Origin: Christensenella sp. UBA3770
GTDB lineage: Bacteria; Bacillota; Clostridia; Christensenellales; CAG-1252
Assembly: GCA_002371075.1 (NCBI GenBank)
Contig: DFFS01000040.1
Span: 1-16,379 of the forward strand
Direction: 5' to 3'
Length of the DNA stretch: 16,379 nt
Part shown: piece after piece, positions 1 to 16,379 of the stretch
Layout of the letters: each line of letters opens with the position of its first letter
Position numbering within the stretch: the first letter of the stretch is position 1
The notes under the pieces: model-generated
Seen by the model: only the letters and a program-made list of their open reading frames with translations
Told to the model about the DNA's origin: nothing
The model's database searches: none
Made by a program: the position numbers and the translations under genes

Positions 1-787
<787 letters not shown>

Positions 788-791
<4 letters not shown>

Positions 792-1216: not shown

Positions 1217-1229
1217 GGTCGTTTCCCAT

Positions 1230-1262
1230 GTCCCTCCGGTCTTCGGAGGGACTTTTTTTTTA
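1230..1262 (+). terminator. Rho-independent terminator after the cysK-Rrf2 operon
   Basis: A 9-bp perfect stem gtccctccg (1230-1238) pairs with cggagggac (1244-1252). It has a 5-nt loop and is followed by a T10 run. Confidence 0.75.
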
Positions 1263-1280
1263 TAAAAAACTCAAAAACCG

Positions 1281-1309
1281 TTGACGAAATAACGGCGCTG
1301 TCGTATAAT
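1281..1309 (+). promoter_or_regulatory. Sigma-A type promoter for the metal-resistance operon
   Basis: The -35 TTGACG is at 1281-1286 and the -10 TATAAT is at 1304-1309. The spacer is exactly 17 bp. Confidence 0.6.
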
Positions 1310-1316
1310 GATAACA

Positions 1317-1343
1317 GTTGAACAAGTATTCAACCGTTCAACC
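1317..1343 (+). promoter_or_regulatory. ArsR/SmtB-type operator dyad between the -10 and the RBS
   Basis: A TGAACA-AG-TATTCA imperfect inverted repeat sits at 1319-1332. It is nested in an outer dyad, GTTGAAC (1317-1323) and GTTCAAC (1336-1342). The TGAA..TTCA core is characteristic of SmtB/CzrA/CadC-family operators. The position is consistent with autorepression. Confidence 0.5.
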
Positions 1344-1356
1344 TTGGAGGTGTGAT

Positions 1357-1722
1357 ATGAAAAAGATCGTTTCCGACCTTTGCGAAGACGACGTTATCCA
1401 CGTGGGCGTGGTTGAAAAAGTGCGTGCCGCCATCCCCGACGAGGACGTTCTCGTTGACGTGGCGGAGCTTTTTAAGGTGTTTGGCGACAGCACGCGCACC
1501 CGTATTCTTTCGGCGCTTTTCGTGTCGGAGCTTTGCGTTTGCGACATCGCCAGTTTGTTAAATATGACAAAATCCGCCGTTTCCCATCAGCTTCGCATCT
1601 TGCGTCAAACCAAGATCGTAAAAAACCGCAAGCAGGGGAAGGAAGTGTATTATTCGCTTGATGACGAGCATATCTCGCGTATTTATAAAATGGCTCTTGA
1701 ACATTTATCGGAGGAAAAATAG
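1357..1722 (+). CDS. cadC: ArsR/SmtB-family metalloregulatory repressor (CadC-like; Cd/Pb/Zn-sensing type)
   Basis: The RBS GGAGG at 1346-1350 lies 6 nt before the ATG at 1357. The upstream TTG at 1318 (track start) lies inside the operator and has no RBS. The protein has the HTH 'KSAVSHQLRILRQTKIV', the alpha3 metal motif 'ELCVCDIA' (CVC), and an N-terminal Cys in 'DLCEDD', as in alpha3N-site sensors. The stop TAG at 1720-1722 abuts the next ATG. Confidence 0.85.
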   Translation: MKKIVSDLCEDDVIHVGVVEKVRAAIPDEDVLVDVAELFKVFGDSTRTRILSALFVSELCVCDIASLLNMTKSAVSHQLRILRQTKIVKNRKQGKEVYYSLDDEHISRIYKMALEHLSEEK

Positions 1723-1950
1723 ATGAAAAAGGTTTATGAATTAACAGATCTGTGCTGCGCCGCTTGCGCCGCCGAGATCGAGCGTGACGTGAAAAAGATA
1801 GAGGGCGTTGCTTTTTGCAGCGTAAACTTCATTATGCAAAAGATGACCGTCGACTACAAAGACGAGGCGGACGTTCCCTCCGTTTACAAGGCGCTTGTCA
1901 AAGCGGTGCGCCGCGTGGAAGCCGATTGCGAGGTAATCGAGGTAAAGTGA
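1723..1950 (+). CDS. Stand-alone heavy-metal-associated (HMA) domain protein, homologous to the CadA N-terminal metal-binding domain
   Basis: The 75-aa product contains 'LCCAACAAEIERDVKKIEGV', a CxxC metal-binding loop in a ferredoxin-like HMA context. This resembles the CANC motif of CadA N-termini. The ATG directly follows the cadC stop. Confidence 0.8.
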   Translation: MKKVYELTDLCCAACAAEIERDVKKIEGVAFCSVNFIMQKMTVDYKDEADVPSVYKALVKAVRRVEADCEVIEVK

Positions 1951-1951
1951 C

Positions 1952-3835
1952 GTGAAACGCGACAAAAAGCTGTTGATCCGCATCATCGTGGCGTTTGCGG
2001 TGTTTGCCGCCGCCCTGATCCTGTTCAAATTGACGCCGCTACGCAGTTTCGGCGCCGTTGCGGAAGGGTGGAACCTAAGCGATTTCCGTTTCTATTTGTA
2101 CGTTTTGCCGTTTTTGATCGCCTATTTGATCGTCGGATACGACGTCATATACAAAGCGGGCAGAAACCTTGTTTCCGGCAGGCTTCTTGACGAAAACTTT
2201 TTGATGGTGGTGGCGACCTTTGGCGCCGTGGCGCTTTTGGACCTGCCCGAAGCGTGCGGCGTGATGCTGTTTTATCAGATCGGCGAGTTGTTTCAGCGCT
2301 ATGCCGTCGGCAAATCGCGCCGTTCCATTGCCGCGCTGATGAACATTCGTCCCGACGTGGCGCGCGTTTTGCGTGACGGCGAAGAGGTTTTTCTTTCCCC
2401 TGAGGAAGTTGCGGTTGGCGACGTGCTTGTTTTGCGCGCCGGAGAGCGCGTTCCCGTGGACGCCGTCCTTATGGATGGAGCAGGGAGCTTTGACGTGTCT
2501 TCCCTGACGGGTGAGAGCTTGCCTCGTGATGTCGCAGCGGGGGACGAGGTGCTCAGCGGCTCCATAAACCTCGGCGGAGAGATCAAACTGCGCGCGGTAA
2601 AACCCTATGGGGAATCCACCGTGCAAAAGATCCTTGATCTTGTGGAAAACGCCGCCGCCAAAAAGGCGCAGGCGGAGAACTTTATCACAAAATTCGCGCG
2701 CTATTATACGCCCGTCGTCGTTGTCGCGGCGCTCTTGATCGGGCTTGTCCCGCCCCTCTTTTTGGGAAATTGGGGCGGGTGGATCAAAAAGGCGCTGACC
2801 TTCCTTGTGGTCTCCTGTCCTTGCGCGCTTGTCATCTCGGTGCCGCTCTCCTTCTTCGGTGGGATCGGCGGCGCGTCCAAAAAGGGCATTCTTGTCAAAG
2901 GGGGCGCGGCGCTTGAGCGCTTGGCAAAAGCGAACGTCTTTTTGTTTGATAAAACGGGGACCATCACCGAGGGCAAATTTTCCGTCGTGGAGGTGTTTCC
3001 GTCCGAGCGTGCTTCGGAGGTGCTGACGGCGGCAGCCATTGCCGAAAGCGCGTCCAATCACCCGATCGCACGGTCCGTCGTTGCGTTTGCTCCGGCGGTG
3101 GATCACGCGGGTTATACGATTCGGGAAATCGTCGGACGCGGGGTCAAAGCCGTCAAAGAGGGTGACGAGATCCTTGTCGGCAACGCGGCGCTCCTTTCGG
3201 AGGAAGGCGTCGATTTTGAACCTTGTAAGCGGGGCGGCACGACCCTTTACGTGGCGAGAAACGGCGCGTTTATCGGGTGGTTGACGGTTTCCGACACGCC
3301 CAAAGAAAACGCCGCAGAGGTCGTTGCGGCGCTGAAAAAAGAGGGTTGTATGACCGTTATGCTGACGGGCGATCACAGGGGCGCGGCAAAAGAGGTTGCC
3401 GAACGGGTGGGCGTGGATGCTTACGTTGCGGAATTGTTGCCGCAAGATAAGGCGGCGTATATGGAAAAGATCCTTAGGGAGCAGGCGGGAAAGACCGTTT
3501 GCTTTGTCGGCGACGGCATCAACGACGCTCCCGTCCTTGCCATGGCGGACGTGGGCGTTTCTATGGGCGGCATCGGCAGCGACGCTGCGATCGAGGCTTC
3601 CGACGTGGTGTTGATGCGGGATGACCTTGCCTCCATAAAAGAGGGCAGAGGCATCGCCAAAAAGACGATGCGCATCGTGCGCGAAAACATTGCCGTCGCG
3701 CTTGGCGTCAAGGTGGGGGTTCTCCTTTTGACGGCGGTTGGGCTGATGGGGGCTTTTGCCATGTGGCTTGCGGTGTTTGCGGACGTCGGCGTGGCGATGC
3801 TTGCGATCCTAAACGCGATGAGAACGCTTCGCTGA
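1952..3835 (+). CDS. cadA: P1B-type heavy-metal (Cd2+/Zn2+/Pb2+) translocating ATPase lacking an N-terminal HMA domain
   Basis: The TM6 motif is 'SCPCALVIS' (CPC). The phosphorylation site is 'FDKTGTIT' and the HP motif is 'SNHPIA'. The protein also has 'MLTGDH', the hinge 'VGDGINDAP', and 8 predicted TM helices. A GTG start at 1952 is preceded by GAGGTAA, 6 nt upstream. Confidence 0.9.
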   Translation: MKRDKKLLIRIIVAFAVFAAALILFKLTPLRSFGAVAEGWNLSDFRFYLYVLPFLIAYLIVGYDVIYKAGRNLVSGRLLDENFLMVVATFGAVALLDLPEACGVMLFYQIGELFQRYAVGKSRRSIAALMNIRPDVARVLRDGEEVFLSPEEVAVGDVLVLRAGERVPVDAVLMDGAGSFDVSSLTGESLPRDVAAGDEVLSGSINLGGEIKLRAVKPYGESTVQKILDLVENAAAKKAQAENFITKFARYYTPVVVVAALLIGLVPPLFLGNWGGWIKKALTFLVVSCPCALVISVPLSFFGGIGGASKKGILVKGGAALERLAKANVFLFDKTGTITEGKFSVVEVFPSERASEVLTAAAIAESASNHPIARSVVAFAPAVDHAGYTIREIVGRGVKAVKEGDEILVGNAALLSEEGVDFEPCKRGGTTLYVARNGAFIGWLTVSDTPKENAAEVVAALKKEGCMTVMLTGDHRGAAKEVAERVGVDAYVAELLPQDKAAYMEKILREQAGKTVCFVGDGINDAPVLAMADVGVSMGGIGSDAAIEASDVVLMRDDLASIKEGRGIAKKTMRIVRENIAVALGVKVGVLLLTAVGLMGAFAMWLAVFADVGVAMLAILNAMRTLR

Positions 3836-3838
3836 AAA

Positions 3839-3862
3839 AACCGCCGTTCGGGCGGTTTTGTT
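3839..3862. terminator. Probable bidirectional rho-independent terminator between the convergent cadA and lipoprotein genes
   Basis: The stem aaccgcc (3839-3845) pairs with ggcggtt (3851-3857) and is followed by TTTGTTG. On the opposite strand it is preceded by an A-run, so it is usable in both directions. Confidence 0.55.
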
Positions 3863-3899
3863 GTAAAAGTAGATTATTCCACTTGTTTTATAAAAATCT

Positions 3900-5615
3900 T
3901 TATTCTTCGTCTTTGGGTAGGATCAAGCCCTCAAGCTCGATGCCGATCACGTCGATGGTCATGCGGACCTTTTCCGTATCTCCCTCTTTCGTGTAAGTAT
4001 AGCGGATATACGATTCGCCTTTTCCGACGGCGTTGTTGACGTAGATCGCCGTATAGGTCTTATCGCCCGCCGTGACGGTCTCCAGCGTGTAGGTCCCCAC
4101 GCATTCAATGCCGATCACGTCGTCAAATGCGTCGGGGTCGTCAACGATCAGTTGTCCCGTTTGGGCATATCGCGCGAAGATGGCTTGCAGGTGCGGGTTG
4201 TCGTAATCCAACCCGATGATCCTGATCCCATAGTATTCCTCAATGGCTTTGAGCACGCCGGCAAGGTCGGTCTCTTCCACGCCCGGGGCAATGTCGGAGA
4301 AGTAGTAGGACGCAAGCCCGAAAGCAAATTCCGAATTCAGATTAAAACCGCTTTTTTTGACCGTATCTTTCAAGATGCCGGTCACCAGTTCCAACAGCGG
4401 AACGGTCAGCTTGTACGTTCCGTCTTTTTCAAACGTGATGCTCGCTTGTTTTTTGTCGATCGCACCGGTGTACTCATCTCCGAATACGGCAAAGTACGAA
4501 ACGTCAAAACGCTTTGTGACGTCAAAGGTCCTGCCCGATCTGACCGCCTTATAAACGGTGGGAAGGACGCCGTTTGTCCCGTCAAAGTAAGCTTTGCTTA
4601 CTTCGCCAAAGGTTGCGGCGCGCATGATGGCTTTTTTGATGCTTTCTTTGTTTTCAATGTCGCCGTACAGGCGGTTTAACTGGCTGACCTTTTGCTTTTT
4701 GTATTGATACAGCGCGTTGGGAGCGGCAAGCCCGTGCGACGCAAGTTTGTCTTGCAACAGTTCCGCAAGGATGGCGTGGCCTTCCGAGGAGGGGTGCACG
4801 CCGTCTGAGCAAAACAGGCGTTGCCAACGATCGTTGTCTTTTTCGTAGATGCTTTCAAACGCCGAGTACACGTCGATCAGTTCAAAGGGCTTGACGGTGT
4901 TTCCGTCTTCGTCAACGTAGGTATGCTCTTCCGCGTAGTCTATGAGGGTTTGGTTGATCGTGCGGATCAACTTGTCCATAACCGCGTGATATTTTTGGGG
5001 CCCGATACCCTTTGAGGCAAGCACGCTGCGTGCATAAGAGGGAACGAGCGGGCTGTCTTCTCCGGCGGGGTTATACAGCGTTTGCACAAAGATCAGGGCG
5101 TTTGGATTGAGACGCTTGAGGGTCGCAAAGGTGTTTTCAAAGTTTGCTTTCGCCGTCTCCTGACGGGGGGTGATGCGATCGTAAACGTCGTTTGAAAGGT
5201 CGATCATCAGCTGATTGTGGCTGGAGTTCAAAAAGTCGTTGCCGATGTTGGAGATGTGAATGATGTCGGCGGTGGAAATATAGGTGCGCACGAGGTTGAT
5301 ACCGTCGTCCTCTCGCTCGACAAAATGCATCAGGTCTTCCGTCGTATAGGCGGTCACGGCGCGATTGTGAAACGAAAAGTCGTTGATCGTGCCGACAATG
5401 CCGTAGTAGCCGTAGTTTTCGCGCTCCGTCAACGGGCAGGGACCGGCAAGCGCTTCGCCGATGGAGTCGCCGAGGAAAAGGATCTCCGTTTTTTTCTCTG
5501 TCGTAACGGCAGCTGTCTCTTGCGTTTCTTCGCGCTTTTGCACGCAGGCAAAAAGCGCCGTGAACGTCACGACAAGCACAAGCAATATGGCGGTAAGCAA
5601 AAATATCCTTTTCAT
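3900..5615 (-). CDS. Secreted lipoprotein with an N-terminal SGNH/GDSL-family hydrolase (lipase/esterase) domain and a ~250-aa C-terminal domain of unknown function
   Basis: A lipoprotein signal 'MKRIFLLTAILLVLVVTFTALFAC' is present, with lipobox L-F-A-C. The SGNH block I is 'ILFLGDSIGE' and block V is 'CSDGVHPSSEGH', of the DxxH type. The start was chosen at 5615, because the upstream ATG at 5648 lies inside the -10 hexamer of the promoter. Confidence 0.75.
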   Translation of the reverse strand: MKRIFLLTAILLVLVVTFTALFACVQKREETQETAAVTTEKKTEILFLGDSIGEALAGPCPLTERENYGYYGIVGTINDFSFHNRAVTAYTTEDLMHFVEREDDGINLVRTYISTADIIHISNIGNDFLNSSHNQLMIDLSNDVYDRITPRQETAKANFENTFATLKRLNPNALIFVQTLYNPAGEDSPLVPSYARSVLASKGIGPQKYHAVMDKLIRTINQTLIDYAEEHTYVDEDGNTVKPFELIDVYSAFESIYEKDNDRWQRLFCSDGVHPSSEGHAILAELLQDKLASHGLAAPNALYQYKKQKVSQLNRLYGDIENKESIKKAIMRAATFGEVSKAYFDGTNGVLPTVYKAVRSGRTFDVTKRFDVSYFAVFGDEYTGAIDKKQASITFEKDGTYKLTVPLLELVTGILKDTVKKSGFNLNSEFAFGLASYYFSDIAPGVEETDLAGVLKAIEEYYGIRIIGLDYDNPHLQAIFARYAQTGQLIVDDPDAFDDVIGIECVGTYTLETVTAGDKTYTAIYVNNAVGKGESYIRYTYTKEGDTEKVRMTIDVIGIELEGLILPKDEE

Positions 5616-5646
5616 TGTTCTCTCGTCAAATATCTTTGACAACAGC

Positions 5647-5675
5647 ATTATAAAGCATAACGCCTTTTATTGCAA
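5647..5675 (-). promoter_or_regulatory. Sigma-A promoter for the lipoprotein gene (minus strand)
   Basis: Read on the minus strand, the promoter is TTGCAA (5670-5675), a 17-nt spacer, and a perfect TATAAT (5647-5652). It sits ~25 nt upstream of the ATG at 5615. Confidence 0.55.
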
Positions 5676-5864
5676 GCGGCGCAAGACGGTTGCCCGTTTT
5701 CTCCGATCGGCTCCGCCGTTTTTCTTAGAAAAACCCATCGGTATCGAATGGTGAAAAATCGCGAAGAAAGGACAGTTTTTTTTGATGTGAAAAATTATTA
5801 TTTATATGTAATTTTTGCCAAAATCTTTTTAAATATATAATTTATCGCAATTTGTAAACATTTA

Positions 5865-5893
5865 TTGACAAAATTTAACAATTAAGTTAAAAT
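5865..5893 (+). promoter_or_regulatory. Sigma-A promoter for the seven-gene operon, within an AT-rich intergenic region
   Basis: A consensus TTGACA at 5865-5870 is followed by a 17-nt spacer and TAAAAT at 5888-5893, which extends to TAAAATATAT. It lies ~60 nt upstream of the ATG at 5953. The region 5760-5900 is ~25% GC, against ~57% for the window. Confidence 0.5.
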
Positions 5894-5952
5894 ATATATT
5901 AAGACTACAGTTTTAGTACGTCGAAATTCAAAAGAGCGGGGATGCTTGCCTA

Positions 5953-8649
5953 ATGAGCCAAAACGCAGCGGATCACATCAGTTTTTCCATCATAAACGAC
6001 AAGACGGTCGGCGCTCTCACGATCCACGTTACAAGTGTTCCCGATTATAAGGTTTTCGATACCGAAGACGACGTTGCCGCCGCCGGCGCCATCAAGCAGG
6101 TTTTTACCGCCATCATCAACGAGTTTTCACATTTTGCGTCGCAATCCTCCGTTTCTGCGGAGCTGATGTTGTCGTGCAAATCCGCCGAGAATCAGTTGTT
6201 CCGTTCCTTTGTGGATATCCACGTCGTTTTGCGCGCCGTGGACGTTGATTACGCCGCGTGTCTCAACAACCTGATCCATTGCGGTACGTTGTTTGTGGAG
6301 ACGCTTGGCAACTCCAAAATCGTTTGTGAATATTGCGATTTCAAAGAGTACGCGCAGATCGTTTCCGATTTGAACATGGACGAGGTTTTGACCATTCGTC
6401 GCCCCGATGAATACATCGGTTTCCAAAACGCCTTTTTCCCGTTTTGTTACAACTACGACGCCGTGGAACCCAACGATAAGGACATCGACGCCATCATCAA
6501 CGCGATGATCGCAGAGAAGGATTGTGCCGTGGTCTTATCCATCATTCCCACTTCCTTTACCTATGCGGAGCAAAGCTTCCTTTCCGTCAATTACAATTCG
6601 TTAAACAGGCTTTGCACCGGCATCATGATGCCGCGCATGGGCATGTACAAGGAGGCACGCGCCGAGATCCCGATGCGTACCTACAAAAAGTATTCCGCTT
6701 TTTGCGCCGAGCCCGTTTGTTTGTTTAACATGCAGGTGTGCGGCGATCGCTTGGGGGCAAGAAACATCGCGTCCAAATTCCTGTCCGTTTTGACGGATGA
6801 AAAGGCGCAGTTCTCCACCCGCTTTGAAATTTGCGAAACCAATCATTTCGCCGATCTGTTAAGAAGCATTTACGCTTCGCCCTGGGCGGTTTCGGACGCG
6901 ATCATGCAGTACAACCGCGTCGCATCGCCGTATCCCCAAATGCAAAACGCCTGTTGGCGCTTGGCGTATCTGTATTTGCCCGCCGAGATCGCGCAGGTCT
7001 TCCGCGTTCCGATCGGCACCAAAAAGATCACGGACGGCATCGATATCCATTACATCAACAAGCGTAACAAAAAGTTTGGTCAAGACGTCATCAATTCCGC
7101 GGCGTTCACGATCGGTAAATTGCAAAACGTGATCGGCGATCAGTCGTATATCGGCGTCGGCAAAAAGGATCTGACCAAGCATATGCTCGTCGTGGGTACG
7201 CCGGGTTCCGGTAAATCCACCTTTTTGGTGGGGCTCATGGACCGGTTGTGGAAGCAGGGCATCCCCTTTTTGGTCATTGAACCCGCCAAGACGGAGTATC
7301 GCGGGCTGATCGATTCCATTCCCGATCTGCAGGTGTTCTCTCCCGGCAACAACGAGGTCTCGCCTTACGTGATCAATCCGTTCGTTCCCCCCAAGGGCGT
7401 TTCGGTGGAAAAACACAAATCCATCGTCAAAGCGGCGTTTTCCGCCGCGTTTGAGATGTGGACGCCGCTTGATCAACTTTTTGACGAGACGCTCAACATT
7501 TGTTACAGCGAGCAGGGCTGGCTGGACAGCGACGTCGTGGAAGAGGGAGCGGATTGCTTCTCGCTGATCGATTTTGTAAAGACCTATCGCGAGGTGGTTG
7601 CTTCCAAGGGTTACAGCGGGGAGTATAAAAAGCAGATCGAAGCCGCCGGCGTACTGCGCCTCAACGGTTTGTTGGAGCAAAACATCAACATCTTCGACAC
7701 GCGTTATTCCGTGCCCATCGAGGACATCTTAAAGGCGCCCACCGTCATTGAGCTTTCCAACGTAAAGGACATCAAGCAAAAGTCCTTTATCATCGCTTAT
7801 CTTTTGAACAACATTTACGCTTACGTCGAGGCAAACAACAGCAACGACGGCAATTTGAAAAACGTGATCCTTTTGGAGGAAGCGCACGTCCTTTTGGACG
7901 CCGGCTCCGTGGTGGGGGACGAGGGTCCCAACGCAAACGCCGCCGCCGTCAAGTTGCTTACCGATATGCTTGCGGAGATCCGCTCGCGCGGCGTGGGCAT
8001 CGTCGTGGCGGATCAGTCGCCAAAAAAGGTCACCTCGCCCGTGATCTCCAACACCAACGTCAAAGTGATGTTCCGTTTGGTGGAAAAGGCGGATAAGGAG
8101 ATCGTAAAGAACTCCACCGGCATGACCGACTTGCAGGAGGAGAGGCTCTCGCGCTTGTCCACCGGCGAGGCGCTTTTGTATTTTGACAAATTGGACGAAG
8201 TGGAAGAGATCCGTATGGACGACTACCGCTTGTCGGCGGGCATCGCCACCGATCTCAGAGACGCCGACGTCAAGGCGCGCATCACCTATTGGCAAAAGCA
8301 CGCCTATCTTTTGAAGCCGTTCCCCGATTGCGATTGCATCGGCTCCTGCAGCGGCGGTTGCGACCCGTTGAAGAGAAACAGGGCGCGCATCATTGCGGAT
8401 AGGATCTTCCGCAAAAATTACCCCAAAAACTTCCACGATTTTGAAACGTTTAAAGCCTTCTATCGGCAGATGAACCTTGCCGTTAAGGAGGAGACCCTTG
8501 CCGTGTTTAAGGGCGCTGTGGACCCCGCCGACGTGTTGGATTGCGCAAAGGTGCATTTCCTCAGAAAGGTAAACTATTTCACCAACATCGAGGTCAACTT
8601 CACACTCAGAAAAAACACGTACGCACGTGCGAAGAAACCCTTGCAATAA
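5953..8649 (+). CDS. HerA/FtsK-clade (DUF87-like) P-loop ATPase, with a ~340-aa uncharacterised N-terminal domain and a Cys-rich C-terminal tail
   Basis: Walker A is 'MLVVGTPGSGKST' (K421). 'VIEPAKTEY' is HerA 'DPxGEY'-like. Walker B is 'VILLEEAHVLL', the EEAH type, at 639-645. 'GVGIVVADQSPKKV...NVKVMFRL..KAD' corresponds to the HerA 'TQRP' arginine-finger region. The pre-ATPase segment 'IGTKKITDGIDIH...IGKLQNVIGDQSYIGVGKKDL' resembles the HerA N-terminal barrel. The C-terminus carries 'CDCIGSCSGGCD'. Confidence 0.8.
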   Translation: MSQNAADHISFSIINDKTVGALTIHVTSVPDYKVFDTEDDVAAAGAIKQVFTAIINEFSHFASQSSVSAELMLSCKSAENQLFRSFVDIHVVLRAVDVDYAACLNNLIHCGTLFVETLGNSKIVCEYCDFKEYAQIVSDLNMDEVLTIRRPDEYIGFQNAFFPFCYNYDAVEPNDKDIDAIINAMIAEKDCAVVLSIIPTSFTYAEQSFLSVNYNSLNRLCTGIMMPRMGMYKEARAEIPMRTYKKYSAFCAEPVCLFNMQVCGDRLGARNIASKFLSVLTDEKAQFSTRFEICETNHFADLLRSIYASPWAVSDAIMQYNRVASPYPQMQNACWRLAYLYLPAEIAQVFRVPIGTKKITDGIDIHYINKRNKKFGQDVINSAAFTIGKLQNVIGDQSYIGVGKKDLTKHMLVVGTPGSGKSTFLVGLMDRLWKQGIPFLVIEPAKTEYRGLIDSIPDLQVFSPGNNEVSPYVINPFVPPKGVSVEKHKSIVKAAFSAAFEMWTPLDQLFDETLNICYSEQGWLDSDVVEEGADCFSLIDFVKTYREVVASKGYSGEYKKQIEAAGVLRLNGLLEQNINIFDTRYSVPIEDILKAPTVIELSNVKDIKQKSFIIAYLLNNIYAYVEANNSNDGNLKNVILLEEAHVLLDAGSVVGDEGPNANAAAVKLLTDMLAEIRSRGVGIVVADQSPKKVTSPVISNTNVKVMFRLVEKADKEIVKNSTGMTDLQEERLSRLSTGEALLYFDKLDEVEEIRMDDYRLSAGIATDLRDADVKARITYWQKHAYLLKPFPDCDCIGSCSGGCDPLKRNRARIIADRIFRKNYPKNFHDFETFKAFYRQMNLAVKEETLAVFKGAVDPADVLDCAKVHFLRKVNYFTNIEVNFTLRKNTYARAKKPLQ

Positions 8650-8681
8650 AGGGAGAATAAAAAACCAAGGAGGAAAGTGCA

Positions 8682-10349
8682 ATGGCAGATGATTTCAATG
8701 ATTCGTTTGACGGCAGTTCGGTAGAGGAGTTTTCTTCGGATTCCTATACGGATTTCTCAAGTGAAGAGACCTACGAACAATCGTCGGACGCATTCATCAG
8801 CGATTATGACGACACGATTTCCGCCACGGACTATGAGACAACCGAGGATGACAGTGGGTTGGAGGAAAACGACTATGATGACTCTTATAACGATTACGTG
8901 TCGGAAGAGGAGCAAGAGGAAGAGTATATCGTAGAGAATGACGATTTTGAAGAGACCGTAACGGAGCCTTCGGCTGACCCCGAAGACGCTTTTATTTCCG
9001 ATCTCGATGAAGTGATCCAAGAGGAGGACGAAGGTTTATCCGATGAGGAACAAAGCGAACTCTACTTGGAGGAGGATGAGGAAGAACCGCAAGAGGTTGA
9101 ACTGCAAGAAGAAGAGAGCCAAGAAGAGTATTTGGCGGACGAGGACGACGAGCAGATCGCGGAGTCGGAAGAAACCGATCCCGATGCTTCCGAGTTTGTT
9201 GCCGACACGGATAATATCCAGCCGCAATACGGCACCCTCGCAGAGTATTTGAACGGGCACAACTACGGGCAGGAGGATTATGACGTTTATTCACAAGATC
9301 CCGAGTGGAGAAGATTGTATTCAATTGAGTACCCCGATGCGGAATTGCCCCCGCTTACGTCGGAAAGTATTGACAACATTCTTGCGCCGTACGAAGGGAA
9401 AACGTATGATTCCTTGGGTGAGTACTTAAGTGATCACAACTTCGGACAGGCAGATTATGAGATCTATTCCCAAGACCCCGAATGGCGCAGATTGTATTAT
9501 GAGCAATATCCCGATGCCACGCTTCCGCCCCTCAGTCAGGAAAGGATCGATGACATTCTCGCCCCGTACGAGGGAAAAACGTACGATACGGTGGAGGACT
9601 ACCTCAACGACCACAACTTCGGGCAAGGAGATTACGATATCTATTCAAGGGATCCCGAATGGCAACGCCTTACAGGAAACGATGCTCCGAGGATTTTAGA
9701 TGATTTCGAACAAGGGTATACGGCAGAGCATCCCGATTTTAAAGATTATTATCAATCGGGGCGCTTTTATGATCAAGGTGCTAATGAATATGGTTTTAAC
9801 GGAACGTGCGGACCAACTTCTCAAGCCAACGCAGTTAATTATTTGTTAGGAACCAATGAATACACGGAGAACAAGGTCTTAAAAATTGCCGTTGAAAACA
9901 ATTTATGTACCTTAACCGGGCCTTCCGGTGATCAAGGAGGAACAACAACGCAACAGTTTATGGACCTGTATGATCGGGTCAATGAGCAGACCGGTGGTCA
10001 GCTTAATGTTGAGTTGCACGATTTTGACAAGGCACTAAGCATTGAAGAAATGGCTTCGAAAATCGAAGAGGGAAGCGTGTTGAACGTAGCTGTTGACAGT
10101 AGCGCCTTGTGGGATAAAGAACGTGAATTCAGTCCATTCGGATACAATGAAAGTTTTTATACCGATCATTGGATAACGGTGACCGGAGTCGATAGGGATG
10201 AATCAGGTGAAATCCAAGGTTTTAAAATTATTGATTCCGGCGGTGGAGTCGACTATGTTGACGTAGATAAATATGATAGAATGTGTTTTGGCACCGATCA
10301 GCACAGAGTCAACGATCCAACGATGATCGTTGTTTCCAAAAAAGGTTAA
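8682..10349 (+). CDS. Tripartite protein: polyacidic low-complexity N-terminus, three 59-aa tandem repeats, and a C-terminal papain-like cysteine peptidase domain (C39-like)
   Basis: The RBS AAGGAGGAAAG lies before the ATG at 8682. Residues 1-180 are >40% D/E. The repeat unit is 'Y(G/D)xLxEYLxxHN(Y/F)GQxDY(D/E)(V/I)YSQDPEWRRLY...YPDAxLPPL(T/S)xExIDxILAPYEGKT', present three times. The C-terminal domain has 'NGTCGPTSQANAVNYLLG' (Cys376), then 'TDHWITVTGVD' (His496), then 'FKIIDSGGG'. This is the Cys...His...Asp order and spacing of papain-fold peptidases. Confidence 0.75.
   Translation: MADDFNDSFDGSSVEEFSSDSYTDFSSEETYEQSSDAFISDYDDTISATDYETTEDDSGLEENDYDDSYNDYVSEEEQEEEYIVENDDFEETVTEPSADPEDAFISDLDEVIQEEDEGLSDEEQSELYLEEDEEEPQEVELQEEESQEEYLADEDDEQIAESEETDPDASEFVADTDNIQPQYGTLAEYLNGHNYGQEDYDVYSQDPEWRRLYSIEYPDAELPPLTSESIDNILAPYEGKTYDSLGEYLSDHNFGQADYEIYSQDPEWRRLYYEQYPDATLPPLSQERIDDILAPYEGKTYDTVEDYLNDHNFGQGDYDIYSRDPEWQRLTGNDAPRILDDFEQGYTAEHPDFKDYYQSGRFYDQGANEYGFNGTCGPTSQANAVNYLLGTNEYTENKVLKIAVENNLCTLTGPSGDQGGTTTQQFMDLYDRVNEQTGGQLNVELHDFDKALSIEEMASKIEEGSVLNVAVDSSALWDKEREFSPFGYNESFYTDHWITVTGVDRDESGEIQGFKIIDSGGGVDYVDVDKYDRMCFGTDQHRVNDPTMIVVSKKG
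9228..9716 (+). repeat. In-frame tandem repeat with a 177-nt period, ~2.75 copies (9228-9404, 9405-9581, 9582-~9716), inside the peptidase gene
   Basis: The unit boundaries fall exactly 177 nt apart (9228, 9405, 9582). Protein identity between copies is ~65-70%, but the nucleotide sequences differ at many synonymous positions. This points to an old, selected repeat rather than a recent duplication. Confidence 0.8.
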
Positions 10350-10361
10350 GGAGGATTAAAA

Positions 10362-10835
10362 ATGAAAGCATTATCAGCTGTAATGAAGGATTTGGATTTT
10401 AGTTTGTTTGGAGGAGCAAAGGTCCCCCATGGGTTATCTCATCCGATTGTCAGATATGAAAACGGGGAGTTCTATTTTGCTGTTTTCGCTTTTGGATTGT
10501 CTGCCGAAAAGGTCAGAACCAATCAGCTTGGGAAACCTTCTAAATGGGCTTTGGCGGATTTGGAATCAGGGGAAATTAAGTTCACTTTTTCTTGTATGGA
10601 AAAGGATTTTTCACCTGCTTCGGAAGATATCCTTTATGATATGAGCACATTTGCGGGAGATCGTCCGACTCAAAAAGATGTGGAAAAGGTTTACGAACAA
10701 TTTGAGGCGATCAGAAGCACATACGTAAGCAATAAAGATGCTGTTTTGCCGCTAATAAAAGAATATATGGAAGCTTTATCCAAAGTCGTGCCTACAGCAT
10801 ATTTTAAATTTTATAAAGATCTTTCGAACATTTAA
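10362..10835 (+). CDS. Hypothetical 157-aa cytoplasmic protein encoded immediately downstream of the peptidase gene; immunity or inhibitor candidate
   Basis: The RBS GGAGGA lies 8 nt before the ATG. The protein has no TM segment and no recognisable motifs. It shares the low-GC composition (~40-45%) of the upstream gene. Confidence 0.7.
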   Translation: MKALSAVMKDLDFSLFGGAKVPHGLSHPIVRYENGEFYFAVFAFGLSAEKVRTNQLGKPSKWALADLESGEIKFTFSCMEKDFSPASEDILYDMSTFAGDRPTQKDVEKVYEQFEAIRSTYVSNKDAVLPLIKEYMEALSKVVPTAYFKFYKDLSNI

Positions 10836-10855
10836 CGAAAAGGGAGGATAGAAAA

Positions 10856-12079
10856 ATGCCAATTGTAGAAACCATTAAATATGAAGGACCGCAAGACGCC
10901 CTTGTCTGGAGAAATTCAGGCAAGGAATACACCATCGGAAAAGATGGCAGCATTAACATGGGATCGCAGCTGATCGTCGACGAGTTTTACGAGGCGATCC
11001 TGTTTGCCAACGGCAACGCGCTTGACTTGTTTAAGCCCGGGCGCCACACCTTGATCACGCAAAATATTCCGATGCTCAAGGAACAGTTTGAAAGGCTGAC
11101 CACCTCTACGCCGTTCCCCGTCAAAGTGTACTTTATCAACAAAGTGCATCAGTTGGAACTCAAGTGGGGAACGCAGGGACCCATCATGGTGGACGATCCC
11201 GTTTACAGCATTTTCCTGCACGTCGGTTGCTGCGGAACGATGGCAATCAGGATCTCCGATTCGAGAAAGTTCCTTTTGAAGTTTGTCGGAAACAAAGAAT
11301 CCTACACAAACAACGATCTCGTCGGTAATTTGAGAGGCATCATTTCCTCTAAGGTCAAGGAGTATATCTCCAAGATCATGATCGAGGGCAGGGTCAGCTT
11401 CTTTGTAATGAATGCAAAGATCGCCGACATAGCAGAGCTGGTGAAACAACAGTTGCAACCCATTTTCGATTCGTACGGCTTGGAGATCCAGTTTTTTAAC
11501 ATCGAGACCATCGACGTTCCCAAGGAAGATTATCAAATGTTGCAAGACGCCAAGAATAACAGGGCGTATTACGACATCAACGCCGAAAAGTGGGAGAAAG
11601 AAAAGATGTTTGAAGTTCTCAGAACCGCTGCCGGCAACGAGGGCATGGCAGGCAACATGATGGGTGCCGGCATGGGACTCGGCATGGGCATCGGCTTCGG
11701 CGCTCCGATGGGACAGGCGATGGGCAACATCACCAATTCCGTCTTCGGATCCGCGCAAATGGGCGGCGGCGCAGGCGCATCGCCTCGTCAAAATGAGGCG
11801 CCCAAAAACATATACAATCAAAACAGCGGTTTGGGTATGAACGTCAATGACTTTTTGAATAAAAACATGGCAAACGCCGCTCCCGCCGCCCCCGCAGGCG
11901 CAGCAGGGCAACCCGCCCCCGCGTTCTGCCCGCAGTGCGGCGCGCCGTTGATGCCCGGCGCAAGGTTCTGCTCAACCTGCGGCGCAAAAATCGAACAGAA
12001 AAACGTGTGTCCCGCTTGCGGCGCGGAAGTTCCGCCCAACGCAATGTTCTGCGGCATGTGCGGACAAAAGCTTAAGTAA
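10856..12079 (+). CDS. SPFH/band-7 (stomatin/prohibitin-like) domain protein with a Gly/Met-rich linker and a C-terminal double zinc ribbon (COG4260/YdjI-like)
   Basis: The RBS AAGGGAGGA is present. The N-terminal ~250 aa has an alternating beta/alpha SPFH-like pattern ('LVWRNSGKEYTIGKDGSI..GSQLIVDEFYEAILFANGNALDLFKPGRHTL'), consistent with the YdjI-type SPFH family. A low-complexity linker 'GNEGMAGNMMGAGMGLGMGIGFGAPMGQAMGN' follows. Two zinc-ribbon motifs follow, 'FCPQCGAPLMPGARFCSTCGA' and 'VCPACGAEVPPNAMFCGMCGQ'. Confidence 0.8.
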   Translation: MPIVETIKYEGPQDALVWRNSGKEYTIGKDGSINMGSQLIVDEFYEAILFANGNALDLFKPGRHTLITQNIPMLKEQFERLTTSTPFPVKVYFINKVHQLELKWGTQGPIMVDDPVYSIFLHVGCCGTMAIRISDSRKFLLKFVGNKESYTNNDLVGNLRGIISSKVKEYISKIMIEGRVSFFVMNAKIADIAELVKQQLQPIFDSYGLEIQFFNIETIDVPKEDYQMLQDAKNNRAYYDINAEKWEKEKMFEVLRTAAGNEGMAGNMMGAGMGLGMGIGFGAPMGQAMGNITNSVFGSAQMGGGAGASPRQNEAPKNIYNQNSGLGMNVNDFLNKNMANAAPAAPAGAAGQPAPAFCPQCGAPLMPGARFCSTCGAKIEQKNVCPACGAEVPPNAMFCGMCGQKLK

Positions 12080-12094
12080 AAGGAGGGTTTGACA

Positions 12095-12835
12095 ATGAAT
12101 GAAAATAAACAAATCGGTAAAAAAGCGTTCTCAGCCGGATTGATCATCTTTACCATCATTATCGCGGTTTTGAATTTGATCATCTTTACGATCTTTAAGC
12201 CCCTGAAACTGGAAACCAATCACTTAAAATTGATCTTCTGGTTCTCATACGGCTTTATGATGTTGGCGTACGTCTTGCAGGTGGTTTCCATCTTCACCGG
12301 CAGATATGAAAACGGGGTGGAATCCGTCTTCTTCAGCATTCCGATGTACAAGGTGGCCATTTTCTACTTTGCCGTTGCCGCTGTGCTCTCCTTGCTCTTT
12401 ATGATACTGGTCAGCTTTGGCGTCGCGGTGCCGTTTATGCTGATGTTCATTTTGGAGATCATCGTCTTGGCGGTGTTTGCCATCGCGTTCGTGCTTAGTT
12501 ACACGCACAAAAACGTCGTCCTTGACATTGACAAGAACATCAAAGCAAACGTCTTTAAGATCCGCACGCTCGTGACCGACGTGGAGGTGCTTGCCGAGGC
12601 GGTGAACGACAACGCCGCGCTCAAAGCAAAGCTCGCCCGTCTGGCGGAGGATATCCGTTATTCCGATCCGATGACCAACGATTCCGTCAAGGATCTTGAC
12701 CTTCAAATGAGGGATCTTGTCGCCGAGCTCGAGCTTGTCGTCAGCGAAAAGGACTACGCGCAAGCGGAGACCCTTATCAGACAAGCGACGTTGACGATGT
12801 CAAAGAGGAACAAGCGTTTGGCTGACGGAAAATAG
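12095..12835 (+). CDS. Integral membrane protein (~4 TM helices) with a C-terminal cytoplasmic coiled-coil region
   Basis: The RBS AAGGAGGG at 12080-12087 lies 7 nt before the ATG at 12095. The track's TTG at 12089 is less likely. The hydrophobic segments are 'GLIIFTIIIAVLNLIIFTIF', 'LIFWFSYGFMMLAYVLQVVSIF', 'VAIFYFAVAAVLSLLFMILVSFGV' and 'FMLMFILEIIVLAVFAIAFVL'. The tail 'EVLAEAVNDNAALKAKLARLAEDIRY...LQMRDLVAELELVV' is helical with heptad periodicity. Confidence 0.7.
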   Translation: MNENKQIGKKAFSAGLIIFTIIIAVLNLIIFTIFKPLKLETNHLKLIFWFSYGFMMLAYVLQVVSIFTGRYENGVESVFFSIPMYKVAIFYFAVAAVLSLLFMILVSFGVAVPFMLMFILEIIVLAVFAIAFVLSYTHKNVVLDIDKNIKANVFKIRTLVTDVEVLAEAVNDNAALKAKLARLAEDIRYSDPMTNDSVKDLDLQMRDLVAELELVVSEKDYAQAETLIRQATLTMSKRNKRLADGK

Positions 12836-12848
12836 GAGTTAGACAACT

Positions 12849-14822
12849 ATGGCAGAAAGATTTACCAGCCAAAGATGTCAGGACTGCCAGGGCGGTCTTG
12901 AATACAACAAGGCGGGGAAATATTGGGAGTGCCCGTATTGCGGCAAGATCTACGAGAGGGAACTACGTTTCAACAAGGTCCAAATCGACGGTCTTGCCGG
13001 CATCAACGACCTGGTGCGTTCCACCCTTTCAAAGGTGGTCAAGCTGGATTTTTCGGGTGCGGAAAGGGACTATTTGGAGTGTGAAAAGATCAACCACTTA
13101 AGCGTCGGCACCGCGATCGCGGGTATGGCGCTAAGCCTCTTCAAGGCGTTTACCACAAAGGACAGACAGGCGGAGATCGCCAAGCTAAATAGCTTGGCGC
13201 AAAAGTTTTCAAAGGACTTTCCCACGATAGAAGACGAGGAGGAGATCCTGTACGAATATATTGCGTCGCAAGACATCTACGCCATGCTCGTCGTGCTTTA
13301 CAGTACGATCAAACAGACAAAGCGCTTGGAGCAAATGTATTTGTTGCTTGATTGCAAAGAAGTGTACGAGCAAAGCATCTCCAAATTTCTCCTAAACGTG
13401 CTTTTGAAGGATGGGAAGGTGGAGGACGCGGACGTCATCATCGGCAATCTGTCCGAGGCAAACAGCCGCTTTGGCATCATGTCGGTGCTCAAGGACTATC
13501 CTGGCAACGACAAAAAGGTCCAACATATCCAAATCCTTTTGAAAAGGTACAAATCCGAGTTCAGCCTTGCTAAAACCTTCGAAGATTATTTTGACGCCAC
13601 CGAGGATCCTTCCGACGTGGTGATCGGCATCTTCCTCGCGGCAATCGAAAAAGGGGTCCAATTTAACGTGGACAGCACGTTGGAAATGGTGCTTGAGAAC
13701 TGCACGGACGAGGACGCCGCAAACAGAGTTTTCGGCGCGCTTTCGCACGTGCGCTTTTCCGATCAGGCGGCGGAGACGATCGTCAACTGGTGCCTTTTGG
13801 AAGCGGAGAGCGCGGAAATCTGCGCGATCGGCATAAAATCGTTGTTTGAAAGCAACACGATCTTTGAGCTCACCTACGATATGTGCGTTCTGCTGTTCGA
13901 TTCCGATCAAGACCCCGATCTGATCATCGGAAAGTTTAAGGTGCTTTTAAGCACGTTGCGCGCTCCGAGTAGGTGCTTGGACAGGTTGATCTCATACGTT
14001 CTCCTTGAAACGGACGGCGAAACGAGAGGAGAGCTGTTTGACGAACTGTTCTCTCGCGTAAACAGCGTGTCGCTCAGCGTTCTTAACGATTACGTTTTGA
14101 AAGTGTACGACGATGGGGAAGAGAAACGGGACATCTTGCAAAAGGTCCTGGAAAAGTCCAAGACCTCTTTCGACTACTCGCTTTTGTCAAATTATCTGAG
14201 GACGGATATCGATGAGTCGGAGACCCGCGAAGGGGTGATCGAAACTTTGCTTGAAGCAAAGTTGATCCCCGATTGCGAGTCGTATACATATTATCTTGTC
14301 AACGAAGACGAGTTACATTCCGACGAAATGTTGGATCTTTTGGATCAAAAGAACATTCGTCCCTCGTCTTCCGCCTTGGATCAGTATTTCCGAAACGTTG
14401 ACCCCGACGAGTTTAACCCCAAGATCGCTTACCTTGCCACAAAAGCCTCCTATCGCTTGAGCGCGGAGGCGTATGCGCGCTATATCCTTGAAATCAGCGA
14501 ACCGCAAAACCGCAAAGCGCACAGCGCGGTCGTGTATTTGGAACAAACGGACGTTTCGGCGCTGCGTAACGCGCAGTTTTCCGCAACGGTCGCAGGCAAA
14601 AAGGTCACCGGCAATCTTGCGGAGATATATATTTTCGTCACCGGCGACGAAGCTTTCGTCGTGCAGGAAGTTCTCGGCTGCTTGAAAAAGCAAAAAATCA
14701 GGATCGACGAGACCATCGAAGTGGAGGGGGAGAAAAAGAGCGTGAAGATGAAGAAATTCATCGAGGAAAATCCCACCGCCGTCCCCGCTTCCATCAAGAG
14801 CGCCGTCGTTCAATTTTTATAA
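12849..14822 (+). CDS. 657-aa protein with an N-terminal Cys4 zinc ribbon followed by a large acidic alpha-helical domain of unknown function
   Basis: The RBS TAGGAG overlaps the upstream stop. 'CQDCQGGLEYNKAGKYWECPYCGKIY' has the form CxxC-x15-CxxC. The rest is predicted to be helical and D/E-rich, with no enzymatic motifs. Confidence 0.75.
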   Translation: MAERFTSQRCQDCQGGLEYNKAGKYWECPYCGKIYERELRFNKVQIDGLAGINDLVRSTLSKVVKLDFSGAERDYLECEKINHLSVGTAIAGMALSLFKAFTTKDRQAEIAKLNSLAQKFSKDFPTIEDEEEILYEYIASQDIYAMLVVLYSTIKQTKRLEQMYLLLDCKEVYEQSISKFLLNVLLKDGKVEDADVIIGNLSEANSRFGIMSVLKDYPGNDKKVQHIQILLKRYKSEFSLAKTFEDYFDATEDPSDVVIGIFLAAIEKGVQFNVDSTLEMVLENCTDEDAANRVFGALSHVRFSDQAAETIVNWCLLEAESAEICAIGIKSLFESNTIFELTYDMCVLLFDSDQDPDLIIGKFKVLLSTLRAPSRCLDRLISYVLLETDGETRGELFDELFSRVNSVSLSVLNDYVLKVYDDGEEKRDILQKVLEKSKTSFDYSLLSNYLRTDIDESETREGVIETLLEAKLIPDCESYTYYLVNEDELHSDEMLDLLDQKNIRPSSSALDQYFRNVDPDEFNPKIAYLATKASYRLSAEAYARYILEISEPQNRKAHSAVVYLEQTDVSALRNAQFSATVAGKKVTGNLAEIYIFVTGDEAFVVQEVLGCLKKQKIRIDETIEVEGEKKSVKMKKFIEENPTAVPASIKSAVVQFL

Positions 14823-14845
14823 AAATCTAAACAAAGGAGGGAGGT

Positions 14846-16379
14846 ATGACTCAGGAAGAATATGATCGTTATATGGCCGAGCAAGAACGGTTGATCAATG
14901 AGTACAACGCGTTGGTCGCAAGAAAAAGCCGGTTGATCGATGAGTACAACATGCTTGTCGAAGAACTGACTTATGCGATCGAAGCGACCGTCAGCGTGAT
15001 CAATCAGACGAACAAGGTCAAAAACCACATCGTTCCGAGGCTTACGGAGTCGGAAGCGGCGGTAACGGTAGTCAACGGCATGGTCAAAGACGTCCAGCGC
15101 GAAATAGAGCAACTGGCGGAAAAGTATTTCTTGATGAAAAACATTTCCACGGCGTCCAAGAAGATGATGCAGCTCAACAACGAGTATCAACAAAAATTCG
15201 GGCTGTACAACATGCTGCGCAGGGTCACGCTCGGTTACGTTGTCGGTGTTGACAGCAACATCATCAGCAACGAGTCGTTGCGCAAAACCGTGGAGAAAAA
15301 CTACCTGCAAAACGCCGATTACTGGATCTCGCACTGCATTATGGCAACGATGCTGTGGGTCAGCGACGAAAAGGAGGCGGCGTACCGCGCGCTCAACAAA
15401 GCGCTCAGCATCGACCGCAAAAAGGCATCGCTGTTTTTCTTACTTTTGAACTTGCGTTTCGGCCGCAACGAGGAGGCGGGAAGGTGGTTTGAATTTTACA
15501 TTCAGGACATCGACGTCAACAACGTCGGCGACGAGATCATCATCTTGTTCCAAGCTTATCTTTACAACGTTTGCGGCAACGAACCGGAGATCAAGGGACG
15601 TATCCGTGAAAAGTTGGACGGTTTGCTTGCGGAAATTCGCCAAAACACGCGCGATTATGACGAGGACATCAAGGTGTCGCTGTTAAAACACATTTCCGCT
15701 TACGTGCACAAGACCAGAGAAGAGTTTGAGAAGATGGAGGATTTCTGCAAGGATTACAAGACGATGATCCAAGCGTTGGAAAGCGCCGAAAAGAACGGTG
15801 ATTTCGCCAAATTCTACAACGAGCTCTACGTCAGCGACGACAATGCGCCCAAGGATCTTTTGACCCGTATAGAAAACGTGTTGTACGACCTTATCAACAC
15901 CTATGACGAGGTGGAAAAGATCATCATCCGCGATATGAATTACAACGAGATGATCCTCAAGGCAAACGGCGACATTGCGGCGGCGCAAAAGATGTATCAA
16001 GCCAAATACAACGAGGGCAAGCCCCAGACGCTGGGCGAACTGATGATCAGGCTTTCGCTTCCGACGGTGGGCGACGACGTGGATATCCGCGTCAAAAAGT
16101 TTGCCATTTCCTTCTTGGTGGAGAGCATCAAAAAAGCCTTTGAAGCTTATCAACAGGAATATCGCAAAACCGCAGTTGACGTCCACGAGGTGGTCATCGA
16201 TTCCTTTACCATCAAGGTGGACGAGAAAGAGCCGCGCAAAGCCGCCGAAGACCTTAAGCAAACGTACAAGAAAAACAAAAATAAGCTTGTCAACAAGGAT
16301 AGGGGCGTAAAAGCCTTTACGGGGCTCAGTGTCTTCTTCTGCATCGCGTTTGCCATCATGGTCGCGCTGGTGTGCGTGC
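14846..16379 (+). CDS. Large coiled-coil protein (>511 aa, 3'-truncated by window end) with a hydrophobic TM segment at the window edge
   Basis: A strong RBS AAAGGAGGGAGG lies 6 nt before the ATG at 14846. My manual translation of 14846-16379 found no in-frame stop. It begins 'MTQEEYDRYMAEQERLINEYNALVARKSRLIDEYNMLVEEL' and ends 'GLSVFFCIAFAIMVALVCV'. It is absent from the supplied ORF track because no stop codon falls in the window. The two minus-strand track ORFs here are antisense artefacts. Confidence 0.7.
   Translation, partial: MTQEEYDRYMAEQERLINEYNALVARKSRLIDEYNMLVEELTYAIEATVSVINQTNKVKNHIVPRLTESEAAVTVVNGMVKDVQREIEQLAEKYFLMKNISTASKKMMQLNNEYQQKFGLYNMLRRVTLGYVVGVDSNIISNESLRKTVEKNYLQNADYWISHCIMATMLWVSDEKEAAYRALNKALSIDRKKASLFFLLLNLRFGRNEEAGRWFEFYIQDIDVNNVGDEIIILFQAYLYNVCGNEPEIKGRIREKLDGLLAEIRQNTRDYDEDIKVSLLKHISAYVHKTREEFEKMEDFCKDYKTMIQALESAEKNGDFAKFYNELYVSDDNAPKDLLTRIENVLYDLINTYDEVEKIIIRDMNYNEMILKANGDIAAAQKMYQAKYNEGKPQTLGELMIRLSLPTVGDDVDIRVKKFAISFLVESIKKAFEAYQQEYRKTAVDVHEVVIDSFTIKVDEKEPRKAAEDLKQTYKKNKNKLVNKDRGVKAFTGLSVFFCIAFAIMVALVCV

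Follow-up and report, generated by a model that had tools for sequence, protein, structure and literature searches.

The window analyzed here, a 16,379-nucleotide (nt) stretch of the Christensenella sp. UBA3770 genome (contig DFFS01000040.1, positions 1 to 16,379), contains a run of plus-strand genes that begins with a HerA/VirB4-clade ATPase gene (g1) and continues with a gene for a protein with a polyacidic N-terminus (g2), a small downstream gene (g3), and genes for scaffold and membrane proteins (g4–g7). An initial annotation of this DNA had described these as a seven-gene operon, and all seven open reading frames (ORFs) were found at the positions that it gave. The genes are separated by gaps of only 9–32 nt, AGGAGG-type ribosome-binding sites precede g2–g7, a promoter-like site lies upstream, and no convincing internal terminator was found within the run; g1–g7 almost certainly share one transcript. 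However, the operon extends past the end of the window: 12 co-directional genes (g1–g12) are carried by the parent contig, L001, a metagenome scaffold of 48.6 kb found via an exact match to g6. The ribosome-binding site ahead of g1 is weaker than the others. The features are as follows.

5865–5893, plus strand: sigma-70-type promoter-like site, TTGACA-17-TAAAAT, 11 of 12 matches, the best in the scanned region
5953–8649, plus strand: g1, 898 amino acids (aa)
8682–10349, plus strand: g2, 555 aa
8682–9221, plus strand: g2 leader (aa 1–180), which starts MADDFNDSFD and continues as a polyacidic low-complexity region; 43% D/E, 0% K/R
9222–9660, plus strand: g2 middle region, approximately three 59-aa repeats (YGTLAEYLNGHNYGQEDYDVYSQDPEWRRLY...), common to toxins with other C-terminal domains
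9661–10837, plus strand: exchangeable cassette, g2 codons 327–555 and all of g3; GC content 0.41
10362–10835, plus strand: g3, 157 aa
10856–12079, plus strand: g4, 407 aa
12095–12835, plus strand: g5, 246 aa (248 aa from an alternative TTG start at 12089)
12849–14822, plus strand: g6, 657 aa
14846–16379, plus strand: g7, at least 511 aa inside the window, cut by the window end; 602 aa on the parent contig
Beyond the window on L001, same strand as g7: g8 (542 aa), g9 (52 aa), g10 (140 aa), g11 (502 aa), and g12 (575 aa)

The locus consists of two separable modules: module A (g1–g3), which comprises the ATPase, toxin, and immunity genes, and module B (g4–g12). The nature of g2 and g3 emerged from a comparison with two sister-strain contigs (L056 and L057), which have the same chromosomal context and are 91% identical in nucleotide sequence to window positions 1–9660 and 10838–16379. 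Positions 9661–10837 had no match in either contig, and a different cassette of approximately 1 kb was found there instead. The breakpoints were located at codon 326 of g2 and two bases past the stop codon of g3, and the g2 protein was 90% identical to the sister toxin (P0149) over residues 1–330 and unrelated to it beyond. Thus, the C-terminal domain of g2 and the whole of g3 were swapped together, as one cassette, between sister strains. The exchanged segment has a GC content of 0.41, compared with approximately 0.50 in its flanks, so the exchange explains the low GC content at g3, which the initial annotation had attributed to a small partner protein of the peptidase; the composition was indeed anomalous, whereas the gene is better read as an immunity gene that travels with the toxin domain. 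In L056, the replacement encodes a DUF6782-like C-terminal domain with an HExxH motif (metallopeptidase-type), followed by a 98-aa gene. The same pairings recurred elsewhere: in all five of the other loci with the papain-like C-terminal domain, a g3-family gene came next, and the DUF6782-like HExxH domain was followed by a gene of the 98-aa family in six of six (L056 included). The g3 protein contained no transmembrane (TM) segment and matched no known family in the Pfam, PADLOC, NCBIfam, or PHROGs profile libraries. It is predicted to be the cytoplasmic cognate immunity protein of the papain-like toxin domain.

In terms of its domain structure, g2 combines the acidic leader and the repeat region with a C-terminal domain that is a putative papain-like Cys/His/Asp peptidase. 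The repeat region contains a 177-nt direct repeat at 9243–9596; Tandem Repeats Finder detected nothing in g2, because the DNA-level divergence among the repeats is too great, and another repeat search revealed them. The C-terminal domain matched Peptidase_C39_2 below the family threshold (E = 0.011; score 16.7 bits, cut-off 24), with the match spanning model positions 11–141 of 143, and its Cys41, His161, and Asp183 are invariant, occurring in the motifs GTCGPTS, DHWITVTG, and IIDSGGG. Neither single-sequence nor profile searches identified a relative of this domain among PDB sequences. Relatives of g2 that share its repeats end in other domains, either Gln_amidase, a papain-fold glutamine deamidase (E = 7e-10), or Endonuclea_NS_2 (E = 4e-28). 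The papain-like peptidase effector proposed in the initial annotation was therefore retained in its acidic repeats and its Cys/His/Asp motifs, but as an interchangeable toxin domain rather than a fixed subunit of a machine. The g2 protein showed no signal peptide, hydrophobic N-terminus, TM segment, or recognized trafficking domain, and none of the N-terminal domains associated with export routes (LXG/WXG, PAAR/Rhs, TPS, MuF, and others) was found in it or in 47 proteins encoded at the equivalent position of related loci.

What these proteins share instead is the leader. The toxin N-termini start with M-(D/S/G)-(D/E)-(D/E)-(F/Y)...S.DTS.D and continue as a long acidic low-complexity stretch. 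When a polyacidic N-terminus was defined as D/E ≥25% and K/R ≤5% over the first 100 residues, it was present in the slot after the ATPase gene in 32 of 44 loci, compared with 1 of the 588 other ORFs of those loci; of the 114 g2 relatives that reach 300 aa, 108 had it.

To place the locus in a broader context, a scan of species-representative genomes with g1 yielded 51 loci, whose ORFs were called and clustered. The g1-type loci were found in Clostridia, Bacteroidales, Kiritimatiellia, Planctomycetes, Opitutaceae, and Fretibacterium (Synergistota). Most g1 relatives were 33–39% identical to g1 irrespective of their phylum, which points to horizontal spread. A recurrent gene order was observed, in which the ATPase gene is followed by one to three highly variable genes (67–1,374 aa), an SPFH gene (the g4 family), and a TM protein gene (the g5 family). 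Among the 28 loci with at least 6 kb of sequence downstream of the ATPase gene, an SPFH gene occurred within 8 kb of it in 27, and a g5-family TM gene (family F2) in 25. This adjacency is not an accident of the window, as would have been the case had homologues of these genes never been co-located in other genomes. Of the 47 variable-slot proteins, Pfam assigned two to TNT, three to DUF6782, and others to Endonuclea_NS_2, WHH, Colicin-DNase, and SprT-like; the classic polymorphic-toxin domains include those found in the variable slot (Zhang et al. 2012, PMC3482391). The loci therefore combine a conserved N-terminal region joined to unrelated C-terminal domains, a co-varying small downstream gene, and recognized toxin families. 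On its sequence, the locus fits the genetic definition of a polymorphic toxin system yet lacks every known trafficking domain.

Several variations on this arrangement were observed. A zinc-ribbon protein followed the TM gene in many loci. Full 12-gene sets in L041, L059, L062, and Blautia wexlerae were reordered, with the SPFH, TM, and zinc-ribbon genes preceding the ATPase, toxin, and immunity genes and the rest following. Cultured species that carry the locus include Blautia wexlerae (full set) and Bengtsoniella intestinalis. Some loci carried more than one toxin cassette (L036 12655–17390; L027 5621–9500); in L036, a second acidic-leader toxin (1,144 aa) comes after a DUF6782-type toxin and its 105-aa partner. 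Three extra genes, not found in the window, were located near the ATPase gene, usually just upstream of it, in many loci from several phyla (L002 8129–9905; L036 8041–9932). They encode a zinc-ribbon and TPR protein of approximately 198 aa, a protein of approximately 235 aa with two TM segments, and a TM protein of approximately 160 aa with a YidD (membrane-insertion factor) domain.

The g1 protein consists of an alpha/beta N-terminal domain (approximately aa 1–345), an ATPase core (approximately 385–760), and a helical C-terminal domain. As the initial annotation had proposed, it is a HerA-type ATPase with an N-terminal domain of no recognized kind: Pfam identified HerA/DUF87, and the first ~345 residues had no family match. 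It contains a single P-loop domain, and the Walker A (GTPGSGKS, 415–422) and Walker B (LLEEAH, 640–645) motifs are invariant in the family, so that g1 combines the P-loop fold and both Walker motifs with affinity to the HerA/VirB4 clade. The AlphaFold2 model was confident (predicted local distance difference test score, pLDDT, 85.8). In a structural comparison, this model scored highest against HerA (26.8), followed by the DptH/DndH C-terminal domain (25.5), HerA-DUF4297 (24.7), and VirB4 (24.6), whereas TrwB (19.3), FtsK (18.3), and EccC (18.2) scored lower. The best Foldseek matches were full-length TrwK/VirB4 chains, which aligned with the whole query (E = 5.6e-17) at low TM-scores (0.36–0.40). 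The model hints at a VirB4-like two-domain build for g1. A search of 1.84 billion proteins with the N-terminal domain returned only 80 representatives, in which the domain was located at the N-terminus of proteins of ~870–918 aa or of shorter fragments, with P0386 as the sole exception; as far as these sequences indicate, the domain is exclusive to the g1 family. The family has approximately 2,000 full-length members in the protein database, each of roughly 893 aa.

Four cysteines of g1 (C793, C799, C803, and C864; residues 793–864, window 8329–8544) are invariant in 61 family members and are located in the helical C-terminal domain, where they could be a metal-binding site. In phage and plasmid collections, the gene was not common in phage, with two partial matches. 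A full-length homologue of 963 aa (30% identity over 88% of g1) was found on a mobilizable plasmid of Priestia megaterium, a cultured relative of Bacillus (pN447-3.1; L060 8809–15282), followed by a 1,135-aa protein composed largely of acidic tandem repeats, with no SPFH gene nearby. An acidic neighbor was seen in only one of six loci with more distant g1 homologues (Actinomycetota and other phyla), so the leader rule is not extended to them.

Module B forms the membrane-scaffold part of the locus, and the initial annotation had correctly recognized g4 as an SPFH protein with a double zinc ribbon, g5 as a four-TM protein, g6 as a zinc-ribbon protein, and g7 as a coiled-coil TM protein; Pfam matches, hydrophobic segments, invariant cysteines, and a structural model agree with these assignments. 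The g4 protein contains Band_7_1 (E = 3e-38) and a C-terminal DZR double zinc ribbon (E = 1e-12), separated by a Gly/Met/Ala-rich linker. No TM segment was predicted, indicating a soluble SPFH protein, and g4 has the full YdjI-type set of a Band_7_1 domain, a stretch of low complexity, and a zinc finger without a TM segment. The g5 protein, whose gene always follows the SPFH gene, has four hydrophobic/TM segments and a helical C-terminal tail and matched no Pfam family. The g6 protein starts with a CxxC...CxxC zinc ribbon (C10, C13, C28, and C31 invariant), which is followed by a large helical remainder, and had only weak Pfam matches. In profile comparisons, the ribbon was the only part that it shared with the zinc-ribbon proteins at the equivalent position in other phyla, at a probability of ~50%.

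The remaining genes of module B include three paralogues (g7, g8, and g12) of the coiled-coil/TPR/2-TM type. The g7 model (pLDDT 83.7) shows a hairpin of coiled coil, a TPR-like repeat, a helical domain, a pair of TM helices, and a long helix at the C-terminus; it had no specific structural relative and no likeness to PspA or ESCRT-III, and comparison of the g7 family with PDB sequences returned only coiled-coil noise. The search returned ~300 members of the family, and all of the few source names listed were Clostridia. The g11 protein is a classical AAA+ ATPase (PF00004, E = 1.5e-30), whose closest solved relatives are VCP/CDC48-type unfoldases (E = 2e-46). In every full module, two small conserved genes, g9 (52 aa, acidic) and g10 (140 aa), separate the second paralogue from the AAA+ gene (L001 15454–16119), and neither product matched a family.

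Comparison with known systems identified no counterpart of the whole locus. Scans of the 12 proteins against PADLOC, PHROGs, and NCBIfam returned only generic ATPase matches and no named system, so the gene set is assigned to no characterized system by any library, which is the outcome that the initial annotation had asked profile searches to check. The PADLOC matches were limited to g1 (HerA, mad8) and g11 (generic AAA, IetA), and no partner gene was matched. A literature search, whose coverage did not extend to subscription journals, found no description of this system. The undescribed membrane-associated conflict system of the initial annotation therefore stands as a conserved and apparently undescribed locus, but as two modules that also occur apart; of the sensing and effector machine suggested there, the effector became a polymorphic toxin and the sensing part found no support.

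Among the specific candidates, the HerA-NurA repair helicase was rejected because g1 scored 31–45 bits against NCBIfam HerA cut-offs of 800–970 and no NurA is encoded in the operon. The HerA anti-phage systems (Sir2-HerA, DUF4297-HerA, and MADS) were rejected because no partner effector or other system gene was matched by PADLOC. Sir2-HerA and DUF4297-HerA resemble the locus in that a gene for a HerA-fold hexameric ATPase adjoins a toxic effector gene, whereas the effectors here are polymorphic, carry an acidic leader, and are accompanied by immunity genes, the ATPase has another N-terminal domain, and the SPFH and membrane neighbors are conserved. [quoted passage not shown] Nevertheless, TIGR03928 matched only at E = 0.052 (score 11 bits, cut-off 778), and the locus lacks LXG, WXG100, EssA, EssB, and EsaA. 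Furthermore, g1 is a HerA/VirB4-clade ATPase with a single P-loop and without TM segments or FHA, the leader is a disordered polyacid and not a helical bundle, and the locus also occurs in diderm phyla.

The resemblance to the type IV secretion system (T4SS) is confined to g1, which shares with VirB4 an N-terminal domain, a C-terminal ATPase, and a similar fold. T4SSs can deliver antibacterial effectors with immunity proteins, and the X-T4SS kills bacteria. VirB4, TrwB, and EccC power secretion; HerA and FtsK act on nucleic acid, and VirB4, VirD4, and EccC act on protein substrates. No other T4SS component was detected here, and the toxins carry an acidic leader at the N-terminus in contrast to the C-terminal signal of the T4SS. 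Pfam and NCBIfam identified no VirD4, VirB6, VirB8, or relaxase among the 12 genes, and the T4SS/conjugation candidate was rejected, the TrwK likeness of g1 being suggestive only. That the locus is what remains of a DNA-transfer module (conjugative or type IV), or a variant of one, with g1 as its VirB4 or coupling ATPase, is thus very improbable: no hydrolase family was detected in the 12 genes either, curated scores were far below their cut-offs, and the conserved neighbors are toxins and SPFH proteins, not transfer genes.

Module B was also compared with known membrane systems. [quoted passage not shown] The initial annotation had linked the SPFH/zinc-ribbon part to PspA-type modules, and this link held for the YdjI-like architecture but not for PspA itself, which had no family match in any of the 12 operon proteins. 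Given the lack of a PspA/ESCRT-III-family protein in the operon, the PspA-YdjGHI module was rejected. The locus is, moreover, tied to a toxin cassette and an ATPase, and no YdjH- or YdjG-like family was detected for g5 or g6, as judged from the Pfam and NCBIfam libraries and not from direct comparison with YdjH and YdjG. As in HflK/C-FtsH, the gene for an SPFH scaffold is accompanied by one for an AAA+ ATPase of the classical clade, and stand-alone copies of module B add an M48 (HtpX-like) peptidase. HflK/C-FtsH is an SPFH cage around an AAA+ protease. In contrast, g11 has no protease domain or TM segment, and HflK/C-FtsH has no counterpart to the three coiled-coil/TPR/2-TM paralogues.

The surroundings of the operon are unremarkable. 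The window begins with cysK (15–791) and an Rrf2 regulator gene (788–1216), and a xanthine/uracil permease gene directly follows g12 on the parent contig. A metal-resistance operon lies at 1318–3835 and encodes an ArsR-family regulator (1318–1722), a 75-aa HMA metallochaperone (1723–1950), and a P-type heavy-metal ATPase (1952–3835). It is followed on the minus strand (3900–5648) by a gene whose 582-aa product has a GDSL-like lipase/acylhydrolase domain and, at its N-terminus, a hydrophobic segment; this gene is divergent from the toxin operon across the AT-rich gap upstream of g1 (5651–5952; 33% GC). The upstream genes have the appearance of ordinary chromosomal content; accordingly, no obvious defense or mobile island surrounds the toxin operon here.

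Taken together, we have little doubt that a toxin–immunity cassette is linked to a g1-type ATPase and an SPFH/TM pair. The more complete interpretation, in which the locus would be a polymorphic toxin–immunity system of an undescribed type with a membrane module, including the steps of export, is a serious candidate that falls a little short of an even chance. In this model, the hexameric g1 ATPase would recognize the polyanionic leader and either thread it or hand it over; such engagement is suggested by analogy, because the leader is a polyanion, like the nucleic acid pumped by relatives of the motor. In the course of this, the ATPase would expel the toxin, free of its immunity protein, from the producer cell through a site in the membrane organized by the SPFH protein, its 4-TM partner, and the zinc-ribbon protein, and the exported toxin would act on competitors without g3. 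In the Clostridia lineage, the three coiled-coil/TPR/2-TM paralogues and the CDC48-like unfoldase (within g7–g12) would extend this site as lineage-specific helpers, which could unfold the cargo, or remodel and repair the membrane. In its boldest form, this proposal amounts to an unrecognized secretion or toxin-delivery system, shared horizontally by monoderm and diderm gut bacteria, in which a HerA/VirB4-type motor threads a polyacidic leader and exports toxins via an SPFH-organized platform. We advance this form tentatively, as the less probable of the two.

Several observations weigh against the export interpretation. We infer toxin export and the ATPase–leader interaction by analogy; no TM segment was predicted in g1, and the diderm loci show no recognizable outer-membrane component. 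The papain-like call on g2 combines motifs with a sub-threshold Pfam match, and the variable-slot proteins were less acidic or short in 12 of the 44 loci. HerA-family ATPases also drive intracellular anti-phage systems, and the locus might accordingly act in abortive infection or defense inside the producer, where a HerA-type hexamer would sense invading DNA or a phage protein and release or activate the toxin, with the acidic leader serving as a DNA-mimic tether that parks the toxin on the motor. We regard this alternative as unlikely, since the one-to-one co-variation of the immunity genes and the C-terminal cassette swaps are a signature of interbacterial toxins that is not seen in known HerA defense systems. 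In addition, no operon gene matched PADLOC apart from the generic ATPase matches, and the window sits between housekeeping genes.

Module B also occurs without the ATPase, toxin, and immunity genes, in Roseburia hominis (L058 5921–18526, CP159990) and in L061 (5966–19643), so that g6–g12 may serve another purpose. These stand-alone modules contain the SPFH and TM genes, one or more zinc-ribbon protein genes, two coiled-coil/TM paralogues, two small proteins, the AAA+ gene, and the third paralogue, together with genes for a zinc-ribbon Peptidase_M48 and a lectin-like protein, and may be a separate, uncharacterized SPFH/AAA+ membrane system of gut Clostridia. Their existence, the YdjI architecture of g4, and the two different positions of the ATPase–toxin–immunity trio relative to module B favor the view that two independent systems share one locus, namely an SPFH/AAA+ envelope-stress or membrane quality-control module (cf. 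PspA-YdjGHI and HflKC-FtsH) and an ATPase–toxin–immunity cassette inserted beside it. Nevertheless, the SPFH and TM genes accompany the ATPase gene (27 and 25 of the 28 loci, respectively) across several phyla in which the rest of module B is absent, and without a functional link this is difficult to account for in the case of g4 and g5 at least; furthermore, no PspA or ESCRT-III-like protein was found. This explanation therefore appears about as improbable as the intracellular one. The linkage patterns indicate that the ATPase–toxin–immunity trio is a unit joined to the SPFH and TM genes everywhere and to g6–g12 only in some Clostridia. A Fic-domain gene was found farther upstream in both L058 and L061; L058 also has an Amidase_3 gene.

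In the gut, polymorphic toxins shape competition among strains, and most toxin-positive gut Bacillota have no known toxin secretion system (2026 paper, PMC13556189). The locus is a concrete export candidate whose leader is defined, whose ATPase is dedicated, and whose membrane partners are conserved, and the idea is directly testable because the locus occurs in cultured species. The leader motif also offers a simple sequence tag by which metagenomes can be searched for new families of toxins and immunity proteins. If the ATPase does handle a polyacidic peptide, this would be a new mode of substrate recognition for FtsK/HerA-type motors, and if the export model is true, the system would be categorically new. 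The combination of an ATPase, a toxin/antidote pair, and a membrane scaffold may be a new route of toxin delivery in gut bacteria.

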